The translations under genes were made by a program, and so were the position numbers. From contig JBHIFL010000010.1 in assembly GCA_046761065.1 (NCBI GenBank), positions 1 to 64,000 on the forward strand: a DNA stretch of 64,000 nt. The letters are read 5' to 3'. Of this stretch, positions 250 to 54,845 are shown piece by piece. Source of the stretch: Candidatus Heimdallarchaeota archaeon. Its GTDB lineage: Archaea > Asgardarchaeota > Wukongarchaeia > Wukongarchaeales > JBHIFL01. The stretch's first letter is position 1; every line of letters starts with the position of its first letter. The notes beneath the pieces are model-generated. The model was not told the DNA's origin. It saw only the letters and a list, made by a program, of their open reading frames with translations, and searched no databases.

Positions 250-2847
250 ATGAAAGAGCTTCGTTATATTCTTGTAACAGCGACCATACTTAATTTGGTT
301 CTCTTGTTTGGGTGGATAGGGCTAACCTCGGAGGGTACTTTGACCAAATCATCTGATATGACAATATCTCCGGGTTTAGAATCATCCCTCCAAGCGCAAC
401 TCAGATTTGCGTCCGGAGGGGCTTTGGAGACTCCAATGGTAAAGAAGAATGAACTGTATCCTACAGCGGTTATTTTTGCAGAAAATTGGAATTTTGACCA
501 ATTCCCTCCAGTCCCCGGAAACCTCATACCTGGTGCTAAGATCAGCTTTGAAGGCGACACTTCGAAAGCAACAAGATTCTACAAAGACAGGGGTAACGGT
601 ATATACGACATTGAGATCACCCCCAAGCAGTCAGGAAGCCTTTATTTCAAAATCAAGGCATCAAAAGATGGATACGCCCTAAGCTCTGTCGAATTGATAT
701 TGTCAGTGGAGCAAACCCCCTCCGAGCTTCTATTTGTATCTAACAATCTATCTATCGAGACAGGAGTCGTGGAGATCAATTCTACATATACTACATTCAT
801 TAAATTCACAAGCGATTCTAGCCTAATCAACGATGCCAACATCGGAGTTGTTAGCCAGTTCTCGGGGTATAATTTTAGTTGGACCTCTACCCCCGATCCT
901 GGTGTATATAATGTCACGATAAGCCCTACAGAGGTTGGGAAAGAGGTCTACAGTATTTGGGCAGCCGTTGAGGGAGTGGCAACCAGTTCGGTTGATCTAA
1001 TTCTGACATCGACTCCATTCCAAACAGCACTTCGATTTATCTCTAATAAAATATCGAGGGAAACGAATCAGGGACGAGAACGCGTGAATATCAACGAAAC
1101 TTACACGACACTGGTTCAGTTCAACCGGACGAGCACCACCCCCGAAACGCCGATTGATGGTGCCTCCCTTCGGGTGACCCCCTCAGATCCAGGAGTCTTT
1201 CACCATCCCGTCGTCCCCTTAGGCAACGGGATATATAATATATCAATTTGGGCTAATCAGTCCAAGCAGTTCAGTATCGTCATCGAAGCTGGAAAACCAT
1301 GGTATTCCAATGCATCAGCAACCCTAACCCTCGAAGTTAGCTTGATCCCAGCCAATCTCGAGGTAATAAATCCCGATTTTCAGGAGAACCAACTCAATGT
1401 AACCTTTACAGACCCTATTAATGTGACAATACGTTTCCAAGATGACCAAGGGCCACTCGCGTGGGATAACTATACTATTGACGGTGGTGGTCTCCATTTT
1501 CATTCTTTAGCTACGGGAGAGGAATTTGGGGTGTATATTTTCCATTTTAACGCTTCTCATCCCGAAACATATTATGTCGCGCTTAATGCGACAGCTACGG
1601 GACATGAGGCCGCGGTTCTAAATATCAAGATCAGCGCAGACCCAATACCCATGGCCTACGAGCTATACAAAAATGGTGAAAGGCAAGGATCAGTCATTAA
1701 TATTGATGAAGGTCGTTCCACAAAAATTACTTTGATACTTCGTGAGTCACACGTCCCGTCGCACCCTCGTGATAATGAGCTGATTGGGGGCGCCCACGTT
1801 GAGTATTCGTGGGAGGGGGGCAGCGGGGTCATGCAAGACTTAGGCAATGGGACCTATACTTTGGAGTTGTCAGGAGAAGGATTAGACACTGGGACACCAC
1901 ACCAATTTAACATCTCTGCTACGAAAGGACACGATTTTAAAGCTCTAAAAATCACGTACTCAGTGGTGATTAACCCCAAACCTCCTTCGCAATTCGAGCG
2001 ATGGCTTTCCGATTACTGGTACATCGCGATGGGGGGAATTATCGCAGGCTTCGGGTTGCTTGGCTACATGTTTCGAAGAAGACAACAATCCAAGAAAGAA
2101 CAAGCCCTTTTTGAGGAACGGATAAGGTCATGCTACGAATTAATATCTGACATTTTAAGCTTTCAAGACCTATTGATCATTTCTGCGGATGGATCACTCA
2201 TTTATGGGTTTAGGACCGCTACCGCTGTAGAGGCAAGCGGTGGCGGCGAATCCTTGCACTCTGCCTTTATGATGGCGCTCAAGACCTTCGCTGGCGAGTC
2301 AATAATGCTGGATGAGCTAATAGGAGAAGATCACTTTCGATTTGGAGAAACGGAGATCTTTCTTGTCAGTGGGGATATGGCGACCTTTGCCTTTCTCTAC
2401 GAGGCCCAAATGATAGACGATGAGTGGAAGAGAGTATCTACAGAGATGCTAGCAAGGTGCAAAGAAGTCGTAGCAGCTATTGAATTCGAATTTCAAGAGG
2501 CGTTAGAAGGCTATCAGGAATCCCATGACTCGGCTCTTATCTCACAGAAGAAGATTACCCGGCGGATTTCAGAGATTATGGAACTCGATGTAAGAATGGC
2601 TCATGAGCTTAAGCTCACAGGGAAAAAACTTCAGATTGAGGAAGCCTATCTTCCGAATAAAAAAGCAATTCTGGAGAGCATCCAGCAATTGGATATGGAA
2701 ACAGGCGCTATAATATTGACTACCCTCTTAGAGAGGGTAGCTGATTTAGGAATACCGACAGATGAAGCAGTATTTATCTTTTATCAGCTGCGAGTTGGGG
2801 GAATGCTTCAACCGAAATTAAACGAGAACCCTATTAATATTACGTAG
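250..2847 (+). CDS. Large cell-surface protein: N-terminal signal/TM, Ig-like beta repeats, single TM, cytoplasmic longin/roadblock-like plus winged-helix-like tail
   Basis: ORF 217..2847; likely ATG at 250 (MKELRY followed by a hydrophobic stretch). About 100-aa repeats 'LxFxSN..ETG.V.I...YTT', many NxS/T sequons, TM 'YWYIAMGGIIAGFGLLGYMF' followed by RRRQQ, cytoplasmic 'LLIISADGSLIY...HSAFMMALKTFAGE'. Confidence 0.75.
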   Translation: MKELRYILVTATILNLVLLFGWIGLTSEGTLTKSSDMTISPGLESSLQAQLRFASGGALETPMVKKNELYPTAVIFAENWNFDQFPPVPGNLIPGAKISFEGDTSKATRFYKDRGNGIYDIEITPKQSGSLYFKIKASKDGYALSSVELILSVEQTPSELLFVSNNLSIETGVVEINSTYTTFIKFTSDSSLINDANIGVVSQFSGYNFSWTSTPDPGVYNVTISPTEVGKEVYSIWAAVEGVATSSVDLILTSTPFQTALRFISNKISRETNQGRERVNINETYTTLVQFNRTSTTPETPIDGASLRVTPSDPGVFHHPVVPLGNGIYNISIWANQSKQFSIVIEAGKPWYSNASATLTLEVSLIPANLEVINPDFQENQLNVTFTDPINVTIRFQDDQGPLAWDNYTIDGGGLHFHSLATGEEFGVYIFHFNASHPETYYVALNATATGHEAAVLNIKISADPIPMAYELYKNGERQGSVINIDEGRSTKITLILRESHVPSHPRDNELIGGAHVEYSWEGGSGVMQDLGNGTYTLELSGEGLDTGTPHQFNISATKGHDFKALKITYSVVINPKPPSQFERWLSDYWYIAMGGIIAGFGLLGYMFRRRQQSKKEQALFEERIRSCYELISDILSFQDLLIISADGSLIYGFRTATAVEASGGGESLHSAFMMALKTFAGESIMLDELIGEDHFRFGETEIFLVSGDMATFAFLYEAQMIDDEWKRVSTEMLARCKEVVAAIEFEFQEALEGYQESHDSALISQKKITRRISEIMELDVRMAHELKLTGKKLQIEEAYLPNKKAILESIQQLDMETGAIILTTLLERVADLGIPTDEAVFIFYQLRVGGMLQPKLNENPINIT

Positions 2848-3039
2848 GCCTCGATGAGTGTTAGACCTATTAATGAAAGAAAATGGGTATTTGGAAGAAA
2901 AGCGTAACGAGCAGATCATGGGCTTCTGGCTCTATGAGTGAATAAAAGTCAATCGATAATGCGTACCTCCACCTTACCAATTGAAACAGCCTTGGATGAT
3001 TTGGAATAGGTATATGTGTATATCCATGTAACTAACTAA

Positions 3040-53055: not shown

Positions 53056-53108
53056 TTCCAATGACATGCTCCATGCTTATAAGTGGGAATTTCTTGATTT
53101 TACCCTAA

Positions 53109-54845
53109 TTAAAGTTGAGTTATCAAGAATATAACCAAAAAAATGAGTGAGAGAAAAAAATAGCTCAGAAAGGCTAACCATTTCGTCTCGGGGGAAATTT
53201 CAAAACGTTCATCTAGTTTGCTGATATCCTCAACAAATTGTCTGGCTTCATCGAATTGCTTTCCAGTCCAATGTTCCAACTGACTCCTGTATTGCTTTTC
53301 AAATTCGTGGAGCTTGGAACGGATTTGCTCTCGCATGGGAGACCGATCGTGATCTAACACTGTCACAATCTTTGTTCCCAGAACCCCATCGTCAAATACA
53401 ATAGAATACCTTGCTTTTCTTATTGTCTGAAAGGCAGATTTTTCAAAGGCATCAATTTCCTGTGAAAAACTTTCAAGAGCTGAAAGGAAGCCACTGATCA
53501 TTGATTCATCAGCTTCAAAGATTTCTCTACGGGCTGCAATTGGCAATCCTCCTTCACTAACTAGCAAAACATCATACACCTTGGAAGGAGAATACGTTAA
53601 GACAACGAGACCTAGAGTGAAACACAGTAAGAAGTCTAATGCACAAATAGATGCGACTGTTGCCGGCTCTACAACTCCTGATAGGTATAACACAATAGTA
53701 AACGGAGCTACAAAAGCTAGAACAACTAATAGGAGAAAAAGGATAATAGAAGTTAGAGGATTTGTTGATATTGATGGAATTTCAGGGGGTTCAGTTTTCG
53801 CTGGGACGATTTCTTCGGTTCTTCCAACAAAGGCATCCCTAAGTAGCTTTTTCGAGCGGGCATCAAGGATGAACCACCCTATAATAAGGATCCAGACAAC
53901 CAAGAATGGGATAAGCGCCATGGAGCTTGTGGTGCCCGCATTAATTATGGCGATGGCGAGGAGAATAATATTCACAGTAATATGGGCGATAATTGGGACT
54001 AGAATGTTCTTTGTCACAAGGAACGCATGGAGGAAGAGAATAAAAACAATAAACAGCCAGAGTAACCAACCCCCCCGAAAGATAATCTCAGTGGAATTTT
54101 GACTAAAACTGGTCCAATTCTCTCGAATTGGATCGAGAAAGTTTGTTCCGGCGGTTTTCGGAAAGGCCAGGTAATTAAAGAGAAACAGATATAGTACTAG
54201 GAGAGCGCTCGACATCCATCGCGCTTGGGATTTCCCCACCTTTGACTCGAGAGAGGTACTCATGTACGCAAAAAAATACAATTCGGCTGAGAGAGACCAA
54301 ACGAATAGATAGAGTGTTTGCCAGAGGATTTCTGCCTCCATTTCTTCGGGATTTAGACCTTGGAAACCTAAATCGCGAATAGCTGTTGAGGAACCATAAG
54401 TCATGACTTCGATTGGAAAAAGTATTACAATAAGGAGACCTGCGGATAAGAACCCTAAAAACAATCCCTGGTAGATTGCGTGAGTCGGATACTCTTTTTT
54501 GAACCCAAAGTCACTCCAACTCCAACGATCACGTGTCCAACGCATCCAAAGCCCAAAAAGGAGGGAAACCCCGAATAAAAGCCCTGTGAAGAGAAATGCA
54601 GCACGAAAAATCCGTTTATATGTATAATACCATCTCGGGGTACCGATGTATTTATTTGCCAAACTAAAATAAAAACCATCTATTTCAGTTGTTTTAAGGA
54701 CTAAATCAAGCAGATAGACGAATGAAAAGGATAACAAGAAGATAAATGAGATTTCAATGACAAGGACAAGCTTGTCTGTTGTTTCTCGTTTTAGTAGCTT
54801 GAAAGGTGATAGAAGTTTATCTATAAGATTTTGAGTTACACCCAA
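53109..54845 (-). CDS. Polytopic membrane protein: degenerate CPBP-like core, longin/roadblock-like domain, C-terminal TM
   Basis: About twelve TM helices; AELYFFAY at the EExxxR position; KNILVPIIAHITVN; then VLLVSEGGLPI...DESMISGFLSALESFSQEI...EFEKQY...W.G. Confidence 0.65.
   Translation of the reverse strand: MGVTQNLIDKLLSPFKLLKRETTDKLVLVIEISFIFLLSFSFVYLLDLVLKTTEIDGFYFSLANKYIGTPRWYYTYKRIFRAAFLFTGLLFGVSLLFGLWMRWTRDRWSWSDFGFKKEYPTHAIYQGLFLGFLSAGLLIVILFPIEVMTYGSSTAIRDLGFQGLNPEEMEAEILWQTLYLFVWSLSAELYFFAYMSTSLESKVGKSQARWMSSALLVLYLFLFNYLAFPKTAGTNFLDPIRENWTSFSQNSTEIIFRGGWLLWLFIVFILFLHAFLVTKNILVPIIAHITVNIILLAIAIINAGTTSSMALIPFLVVWILIIGWFILDARSKKLLRDAFVGRTEEIVPAKTEPPEIPSISTNPLTSIILFLLLVVLAFVAPFTIVLYLSGVVEPATVASICALDFLLCFTLGLVVLTYSPSKVYDVLLVSEGGLPIAARREIFEADESMISGFLSALESFSQEIDAFEKSAFQTIRKARYSIVFDDGVLGTKIVTVLDHDRSPMREQIRSKLHEFEKQYRSQLEHWTGKQFDEARQFVEDISKLDERFEISPETKWLAFLSYFFLSLIFLVIFLITQL

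Follow-up and report, generated by a model that had tools for sequence, protein, structure and literature searches.

A longin-fold domain joined to several kinds of membrane protein in an Asgard archaeon of the Wukongarchaeales

Four genes at three loci

The DNA analysed here, referred to as the window, is the whole 64,000-nucleotide stretch from position 1 to 64,000 of contig JBHIFL010000010.1 (assembly GCA_046761065.1), forward strand, of a Candidatus Heimdallarchaeota archaeon that is classified within the Wukongarchaeales of the Asgardarchaeota. An initial annotation, made from the sequence letters, had pointed to one recurrent pattern in four proteins encoded between positions 250 and 54,845, and had read it as a longin- or roadblock-like output module placed behind different membrane inputs. 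The pattern was present at the positions named beforehand, in four separate genes at three loci, here designated A to D. The four genes, together with the seven-transmembrane (7TM) partner gene of C, are as follows.

250..2847, + strand: gene A, surface protein comprising a signal-anchor at the N terminus, an Ig-like ectodomain, one transmembrane (TM) helix and a predicted cytoplasmic tail of longin domain and winged helix (open reading frame (ORF) and translation)
3040..7635, − strand: gene B, 1531-aa surface protein (ORF and translation, Pfam)
48278..48925, + strand: gene C, soluble protein of longin domain and winged helix-turn-helix (wHTH); its relatives start at the ATG at 48293
48922..49548, + strand: 7TM partner gene, 208 aa; its ATG overlaps the TGA of C as ATGA
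53109..54845, − strand: gene D, polytopic membrane protein with 10-11 hydrophobic or TM helices; the longin domain lies between the last two

Genes A and B are convergent and stand tail to tail. The stretches between A/B, C and D hold metabolic genes, namely those for AcnX, an HhH-GPD glycosylase, paired hydantoinases and a glycyl radical enzyme, and the span from 250 to 54,845 is therefore not one element. The four segments that carry the pattern are copies of one Asgard longin-fold domain family, placed in different protein contexts.

Homology of the four domains

The tails of A (2074-2847) and B (3040-3995) were 38% identical over 256 residues (E 2e-53), and the pairwise E values were 9e-7 for C against D and 4e-3 for C against B. 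A profile was then constructed from 18 relatives of C in other genomes, with every window sequence left out, and used for search of the 11,768 ORFs of this genome (4.4 Mb, 91% complete). It detected D at E 5.9e-14 and B at E 7.2e-4. After the A/B-tail family had been enlarged with relatives from other Asgard genomes, its comparison with the C family by hhalign gave a probability of 99.4% (E 4.8e-22, 198 columns), and the alignment covered both the longin domain and the winged helix. The homology proposed at the outset was thus confirmed by the profile match of D and by hhalign. An exhaustive search of 1.8 billion proteins yielded 34 representatives as relatives of C, and the Atlas clusters of the C family belong to Asgard archaea. 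A word-index search with the A tail returned A itself and two close orthologues, and nothing further.

That the likeness arose by chance or by convergent secondary structure, with no single family behind it, could be argued from the weak pairwise score between C and the A/B tails (E 4e-3) and from the single-sequence scans of the four proteins against Pfam and NCBIfam, in which nothing longin-like stood above cut-off. Protein A also speaks against a single family, as A alone was missed by the outside profile among the 11,768 ORFs; its membership is based on its similarity to B and on hhalign. Given the profile-profile match, the detection of D by a profile free of window sequences, and the same fold class obtained from two independent models with two different aligners, we regard the probability of a chance likeness as negligible.

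Fold of the domain

The longin domains and winged helices were located as listed below.

2125..2595, + strand: longin-fold domain of A, with a juxtamembrane N-terminal helix (AlphaFold2 (AF2) model, VIA, Foldseek)
2614..2814, + strand: C-terminal winged helix of A, acidic, net charge −5 (three helices and a strand in the model; hhalign to the wHTH of C)
3481..3972, − strand: longin-fold domain of B (outside profile as above; iterated family profile E 2.9e-23; match in the genome search at 3508-3909)
3262..3462, − strand: winged helix of B, strongly acidic, net charge −11 (by alignment to A)
48293..48682, + strand: longin domain of C (AF2 model, Foldseek, family profile against the Protein Data Bank (PDB))
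48704..48919, + strand: wHTH of C, mildly basic, net charge +4 (profile matches and model)
53211..53576, − strand: embedded longin domain of D, residues 424-545 (outside profile as above, weak Sybindin match)

The AlphaFold model of C, made with the alignment of the C family, reached a predicted local distance difference test (pLDDT) score of 84.6. The elements follow one another as beta-beta-alpha-beta-beta-beta-alpha-alpha, and a winged domain of three helices comes after them; DSSP assigned strands at residues 2-9, 15-20, 56-58, 62-69 and 72-79, and helices at 30-49, 84-101 and 117-130. All Foldseek matches of this model in PDB at E up to 1e-3 were longin proteins without exception, including the N-terminal domains of AP sigma and mu, TRAPPC1/Bet5, zeta-COP, Sec22b, VAMP7, Ykt6, Mon1-Ccz1 and chains of GATOR1 and the SEA complex. 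AP-1 sigma gave E 8.2e-6, and the target-normalised template modelling (TM) score was up to 0.74. The family profile of C also matched PDB entries by sequence, namely AP-2 sigma (E 4e-5), MON1A (5e-4) and AP-4 sigma (1e-3).

The AF2 model of the A tail (pLDDT 83, predicted TM score 0.80) contained the same longin core as C plus an extra N-terminal helix. Foldseek placed LAMTOR3, LAMTOR2 and MglB at the top, with sigma also matched; the roadblocks come first for this tail because of the extra juxtamembrane helix. In the VIA search, which covers 48,161 chains and is independent of Foldseek, the highest Z values were obtained with Sec22 (12.2; root mean square deviation (rmsd) 2.9, 123 residues aligned), VAMP7 (11.5), CPLANE (11.0) and synbindin (10.5), and the Lokiarchaeota longin 8yqg scored 10.4. 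All of the 50 top rows were longin or roadblock proteins, the latter at Z 8-9.4. By sequence, the roadblock model Robl_LC7 gave weak matches to two of 12 members of the D family (E 0.0023 at best). These predicted structures show no other fold, and they place the domain within the longin/roadblock superfold as a member of longin type. Of the original label longin/roadblock-like, the superfold thus holds, and the closeness is to longins (Z 10-12) more than to roadblocks (Z 8-9.4).

A, B and C carry a winged helix behind the longin domain, as had been claimed for three of the four proteins, and D ends in a TM helix instead. In the models the winged helix of C comprises helices 161-169, 176-182 and 187-199 and strand 203-209, and that of A helices 180-194, 199-208 and 213-225 and strand 229-231. 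The C family profile, in its C-terminal part, matched helix-turn-helix (HTH) regions of MarR, Lrp/AsnC, TFE and Lrs14 at E 2e-3 or worse. The net charge of the winged helix, +4 in C, has a median of +2.5 in the C family. The acidity of the winged helices in A and B makes protein binding more likely for them.

The soluble protein C and its 7TM partner

The coupling of the soluble longin protein to a 7TM gene was borne out by the ATGA overlap of the two genes and by a pairing that is conserved far beyond this genome. The hydropathy plot of the partner gave six peaks and one weaker peak, that is, seven predicted helices. No Pfam match was found for it, and its family profile had no match in PDB. 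Conserved Arg residues of the family stand at R157 and R174 in the 208-aa form. In shape, the nearest neighbours of its Atlas model were HisKA_7TM, 7TMR-DISM and PAQR, at query-normalised TM scores of 0.69-0.78. The 7TM family was detected in 180 of 301 sampled Asgard genomes, nearly always as one copy, and this genome also carries one member.

Among eight genomic contexts of the C family (the window and seven relatives), a 7TM homologue was the immediate neighbour in six, of which four are full-length and two known from gene fragments, and a doubtful one was present in one more. The two genes were arranged in convergent, divergent or co-directional order. On a larger scale, the positions of the 7TM family were compared with those of the best C-family match. 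By this approximate count, in which related genomes are not independent of each other, no more than a few hundred bases separated the 7TM gene from the C orthologue in about 80 of the roughly 128 genomes that could be compared among the matches listed, in families f1, f5, f6, f12, f13, f15, f16, f18 and f20.

Complex prediction for the 7TM protein and C gave a score of 0.54, which is weak support; passing scores of 0.60 or less were obtained for seven of 80 solved complexes and for both of the mismatched pairs that passed the mark (the mark itself was reached by 58 of the 80 solved complexes and by two of 110 mismatched pairs). The best of three controls scored 0.00, the runs agreed in at least 95% of contacts, and the pLDDT of the partner was at least 75. 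From this prediction and the conserved gene neighbourhood, we consider it likely that the 7TM protein and C are linked physically or functionally.

Three side observations concern these genes. The gene at window 47272-48003 (+ strand), 271 nt upstream of C, encodes a protein of 243 aa that has seven hydrophobic segments, gave no Pfam match and is unlike the neighbours of C relatives elsewhere. At locus L072, where a GTPase-like gene lies downstream of a C-family gene, the 7TM gene stands divergently upstream; this was the sole three-gene arrangement of its kind among the contexts examined. In families f12 and f18, most C-family matches listed carry one in-frame stop (TAA, TAG or TGA), which is probably a natural stop read through by the search.

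The surface proteins A and B

The TM helices of the two surface proteins were read from the sequence.

2014..2073, + strand: TM helix of A, residues 600-619, followed by the basic flank RRRQQSKK
3994..4047, − strand: TM helix of B, residues about 1197-1214, followed by KERKKRRK

In its database form A starts with the ATG at 250 and is 865 aa long. Its ectodomain is abundant in N-x-S/T sites. The TM helix is rich in Gly and has a mean hydropathy of about 1.4, under the script threshold used for helix calling. By the positive-inside rule, the basic flank and the tail behind it would be inside the cell, and a corresponding topology is predicted for B. In a relative, the orthologue of A was paired with the same convergent FN3 partner.

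Protein B comprises an anchor at the N terminus, a stalk rich in Thr, three FN3-like domains and Ig-like repeats in common with A, one TM helix, the longin domain with the winged helix and, behind the latter, an acidic extension of about 70 residues that reaches down to 3043. The Ig/FN3 ectodomains described at the outset are firm for B, in which Pur_ac_phosph_N (63.6 bits) and fn3 (26.1 bits) stood above the Pfam cut-off. For A the Pfam matches were sub-threshold and Ig-like only (weak Invasin_D3/CarboxypepD_reg).

The ectodomains of A and B (window 250-2000 and 4050-5400) share near-identical stretches, for example INETYTTLVQFNRTST.PETPID, at a tail identity of 38%. Repeat exchange or gene conversion may account for these stretches.

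The polytopic protein D

The longin domain of D is probably cytoplasmic, as judged from the basic loop after TM8. Full-length orthologues of D with 27-35% identity, all carrying both the embedded domain and the terminal TM helix, were found in three other families, in no fewer than 13 genomes, indicating that the architecture is conserved.

D had been described as CPBP-like, a description that we do not retain. With the Rce1-like model PF02517, D reached a marginal 21.2 bits (cut-off 22.4), and the 11 orthologues gave no match. Of the motifs conserved in that family (EExxxR, FxxxH and HxxxN), the first is degenerate, and D has His at the positions of the second and third (FLHAF, IAHITVN); all 11 orthologues (loci L082-L092) are without His at both positions.

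Paralogues in the genome and spread among Asgard archaea

An iterated profile search of the genome converged on 20 paralogues, whose architectures were assigned by Pfam and hydropathy. The genome-wide catalogue is as follows.

Single-pass surface proteins: three (A, B and C61:24-3182, the last with Ig-like domains and the same tail)
Longin domain with four TM helices behind it: two
Polytopic protein: one (D)
Longin fused to an Arf-like GTPase: two, one of which ends in a histone fold
Longin fused to a Gtr1/RagA-like GTPase: one
TPR and longin: one
Soluble longin and wHTH: C and two more; a 283-aa protein clusters with those two
Solo, or architecture not assigned: five

Six of the 20 paralogues are fused to membrane segments and one is paired with the 7TM gene. 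One domain is thus joined to different membrane parts, in single-pass, four-TM, polytopic and 7TM-paired forms, as had been proposed. The two soluble paralogues matched the HTH_5, HTH_24, TrmB and MarR models. In a tree of the 20 domains, the single-pass, four-TM, Arf-fused and wHTH forms made separate, well-supported clades, which fits repeated domain shuffling; the tree resolves these four small clades and does not settle the deep order.

The receptor-like arrangement also occurs beyond this genome. Other Asgard families contain ORFs of up to 1,929 aa with a strongly hydrophobic helix, a basic flank and a longin domain, in part with a winged helix, and the whole A tail superposed on Promethearchaeota clusters of 422, 734 and 764 aa at TM scores of 0.63-0.73.

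A 16-kb region of another contig (C51:2957-18829) carries genes for longin-wHTH, longin-Arf-histone, longin-Rag, two Ras-like proteins and longin-Arf, and is the densest link of longin family and GTPases in the genome.

Other genes in the window

The large subunit and the swivel domain of AcnX are encoded by adjacent genes at 50522-52207 (+ strand). Two separate pairs of hydantoinase/oxoprolinase A and B genes are located at 27132-30916 and 40872-44676 (both − strand). A PFL-like glycyl radical enzyme is encoded at 57635-60016 (− strand, 789 bits), and the ORF at 60006-60911, which overlaps it on the upstream side, may be its activase. In a look-up of read archives, the stretch was found only in four DNA runs of one hydrothermal-vent study, from which it may derive, and in no RNA run.

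Discussion

How the domain family works was considered from these architectures. At a rough probability of 0.55, it would serve as a protein-interaction platform, membrane-proximal and on the cytoplasmic side, that feeds changes in the membrane part to recruited clients, of which a GTPase is the most probable. The longin platform would probably be a dimer. In A, B and the C61 paralogue the tail of a single-pass Ig/FN3 surface protein carries it, with an acidic winged helix behind; D has it between its last two helices, in a loop that would be cytoplasmic; and the soluble C would probably dock on the single-copy 7TM protein, which has a sensor-like shape. A change in the membrane part would then alter binding or recruitment by the platform. 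The most probable client would be one of the about 37 Arf/Rag/Ras-like GTPases of the genome, and the winged helix may provide a second protein-binding surface or, in C, a DNA-binding one.

The GTPase link is suggested by paralogues of the same subfamily that are fused to Arf-like (two) and Gtr1/RagA-like (one) domains. At locus L072, a C-family gene is followed after 77 nt by an Arf/Ras/Gtr1-like GTPase gene for 181 aa (3231-3776). Structure-based neighbours in the Atlas include clusters fused to Arf or Ras. In the initial annotation the domain had been placed in a modular, kinase-free receptor system that signals, perhaps to small GTPases. The modular, membrane-linked platform stands, and signalling with a GTPase output remains the conjectural part of that proposal.

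A number of results weigh against the platform with a GTPase client. None of the about 37 Ras-superfamily or 12 Robl_LC7 genes of the genome is located on the contig of the window (C10), and in each of five genomes from five further families, 39-79 kb separated the C-7TM pair from the closest Arf/Ras match. Longin domains are also employed in roles other than with GTPases, as in SNAREs and coat subunits. The wHTH of C resembles DNA-binding regulators, so that for C a transcriptional output would be equally open. As to the fold, no Pfam longin model (Sybindin, Fuz_longin_1, Clat_adaptor_s, Longin) reached its cut-off on the four proteins, which makes the family a divergent one; below cut-off, Sybindin gave 15.2 bits against 25 with D, Fuz_longin_1 gave 22.5 against 26.1 with a paralogue, and Clat_adaptor_s was weak. 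As to the 7TM partner, its gene and that of C were far apart or on different contigs in about 47 genomes, nearly all of f9, among the matches listed, and direct inspection of five genomes of f9 and f23 found the 7TM gene free of longin-family genes within 3 kb. The adjacent pairs are mostly convergent and hence not co-transcribed, the complex score of C with the 7TM protein falls in the weak band, and a search of longer forms (444-2000 aa), itself weak evidence, gave no fused 7TM-longin protein.

Two other explanations were weighed. The tails might anchor or sort surface proteins, by way of the cytoskeleton, of winged helices of ESCRT-II type or of a coat-like assembly, in the same way as the longin domains of sigma and mu adaptins are structural cores. 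AP sigma and mu, zeta-COP and core subunits of TRAPP are indeed among the best matches, the ectodomains (FN3, Ig-like, Thr-rich stalk) look like adhesins rather than ligand sensors, and there are no signalling genes nearby. Such a role would leave unexplained both why a compact 7TM protein lacking an ectodomain is conserved as a partner and the GTPase fusions of the paralogues, and a partner of the coat large-subunit kind was not identified. We consider it rather unlikely.

The longin-wHTH proteins might, on the other hand, be DNA-binding regulators of one-component type, in which the longin domain acts as sensor or dimeriser. The 7TM protein would then hold or release C at the membrane, and the tails of A and B would perhaps be freed by proteolysis, with D as a candidate protease. 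The mildly basic wHTH of C with its matches to MarR, Lrp/AsnC, TFE and Lrs14, the two soluble paralogues with HTH models, the Arf-fused paralogue that ends in a histone fold, and the weak Rce1-like match of D with its two His residues all agree with such a function. The wHTH matches are weak (E 2e-3 or worse), however, the acidic winged helices of A and B fit poorly with DNA binding, and the Rce1-like match is below cut-off, with all 11 orthologues lacking both match and His residues. Neither a cleavage site nor a DNA target is known. We take transcriptional regulation to be quite unlikely for the family as a whole.

The interaction platform with a GTPase client is thus the reading that we prefer. 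A more far-reaching version, in which 7TM, Ig/FN3 and polytopic proteins constitute a kinase-free transmembrane layer that switches Arf- and Rag-like GTPases via a common platform of longin domain and winged helix, appears doubtful to us at present.

Relation to known systems

The best structural matches are the eukaryotic longins (AP sigma and mu, zeta-COP, TRAPPC1/C4, Sec22b/VAMP7/Ykt6 and Mon1-Ccz1/Fuzzy), which have the same fold. Unlike in these, a winged helix comes behind the domain described here, which is part of membrane proteins, as a fusion or embedded, or is encoded beside one, and the family is without SNARE motif, coat large subunit or DENN module. Roadblock/LC7 proteins (MglB, LAMTOR2/3, Asgard roadblocks) share the related superfold, and the A tail has an N-terminal helix. 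Unlike roadblocks, the domain has two C-terminal helices, as in longins, and the 12 true Robl_LC7 genes of the genome lie elsewhere.

The same order of domains, longin and then winged helix, is found in NPRL2/NPRL3 of GATOR1 (Npr2/Npr3 of SEACIT). In Foldseek the C model matched chains of GATOR1 and SEA-complex structures in four entries, presumably NPRL2/NPRL3 or Npr2/Npr3, over 245-284 columns with an rmsd of 14-16 Å and a TM score of about 0.2-0.35; such high rmsd and low TM score indicate that the domains match and that their arrangement does not. GAP-type (GTPase-activating protein) longins, namely FLCN, SMCR8 and NPRL2, have G and P next to each other before strand 2 and use an arginine finger for catalysis (PMC12290439). 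In the proteins described here the adjacent G-P motif is absent, and no conserved arginine finger was identified, no mapping of one having been made. C, D and all D orthologues have G-x-P in this loop, the turn that links strands 1 and 2, which is similar but not identical to the G-P motif; it does not vary in the D family (G433, P435), and the Pro is absent from A, B and most C relatives.

Dimers of longin and roadblock domains are platforms for small GTPases (PMC3747258, PMC10933270). Lokiarchaeum has 41 longin-like domains, five of them fused to Arf-like GTPases, and predicted longin dimers as well as Asgard roadblock and longin structures have been published (PMC4917890, PMC10933270). The published Asgard repertoire shows the same lineage-specific expansion and the same longin-GTPase fusions, and 8yqg is a Roadblock-Longin protein of Lokiarchaeota.

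The Atlas model of the 7TM partner superposes on bacterial 7TM modules (HisKA_7TM, PF16927; 7TMR-DISM_7TM, PF07695) and on PAQR/HlyIII. In bacteria such 7TM modules are inputs fused to histidine kinases. Unlike these, the partner stands alone as a 208-aa protein with no output domain and no sequence match in Pfam or PDB, and its gene lies beside a longin-wHTH gene instead of a kinase gene. In a literature search of incomplete coverage, no account was found of surface-protein tails of longin domain and winged helix, of the embedded form in D or of the gene pair with 7TM. The membrane-linked longin architecture is real and apparently undescribed.

Asgard genomes contain dozens of small GTPases, longins and roadblocks. 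To our knowledge, nobody knows the targets that these proteins regulate, in cells mostly without internal membranes. The genes described here give a handle on this question in the form of named membrane proteins, their predicted cytoplasmic tails and a short list of candidate GTPases. Should the GTPase link be false, the tails would still form a new class among those of archaeal surface proteins, and C with its 7TM partner a conserved membrane module of two genes. If it is true, recruitment of GTPase regulators to membranes via longin platforms predates eukaryotes, and a kinase-free layer, if it exists, would be a prokaryotic forerunner of the receptor-coupled platforms of eukaryotic membranes for guanine nucleotide exchange factors and GAPs, such as Ragulator/GATOR, TRAPP and Mon1-Ccz1.

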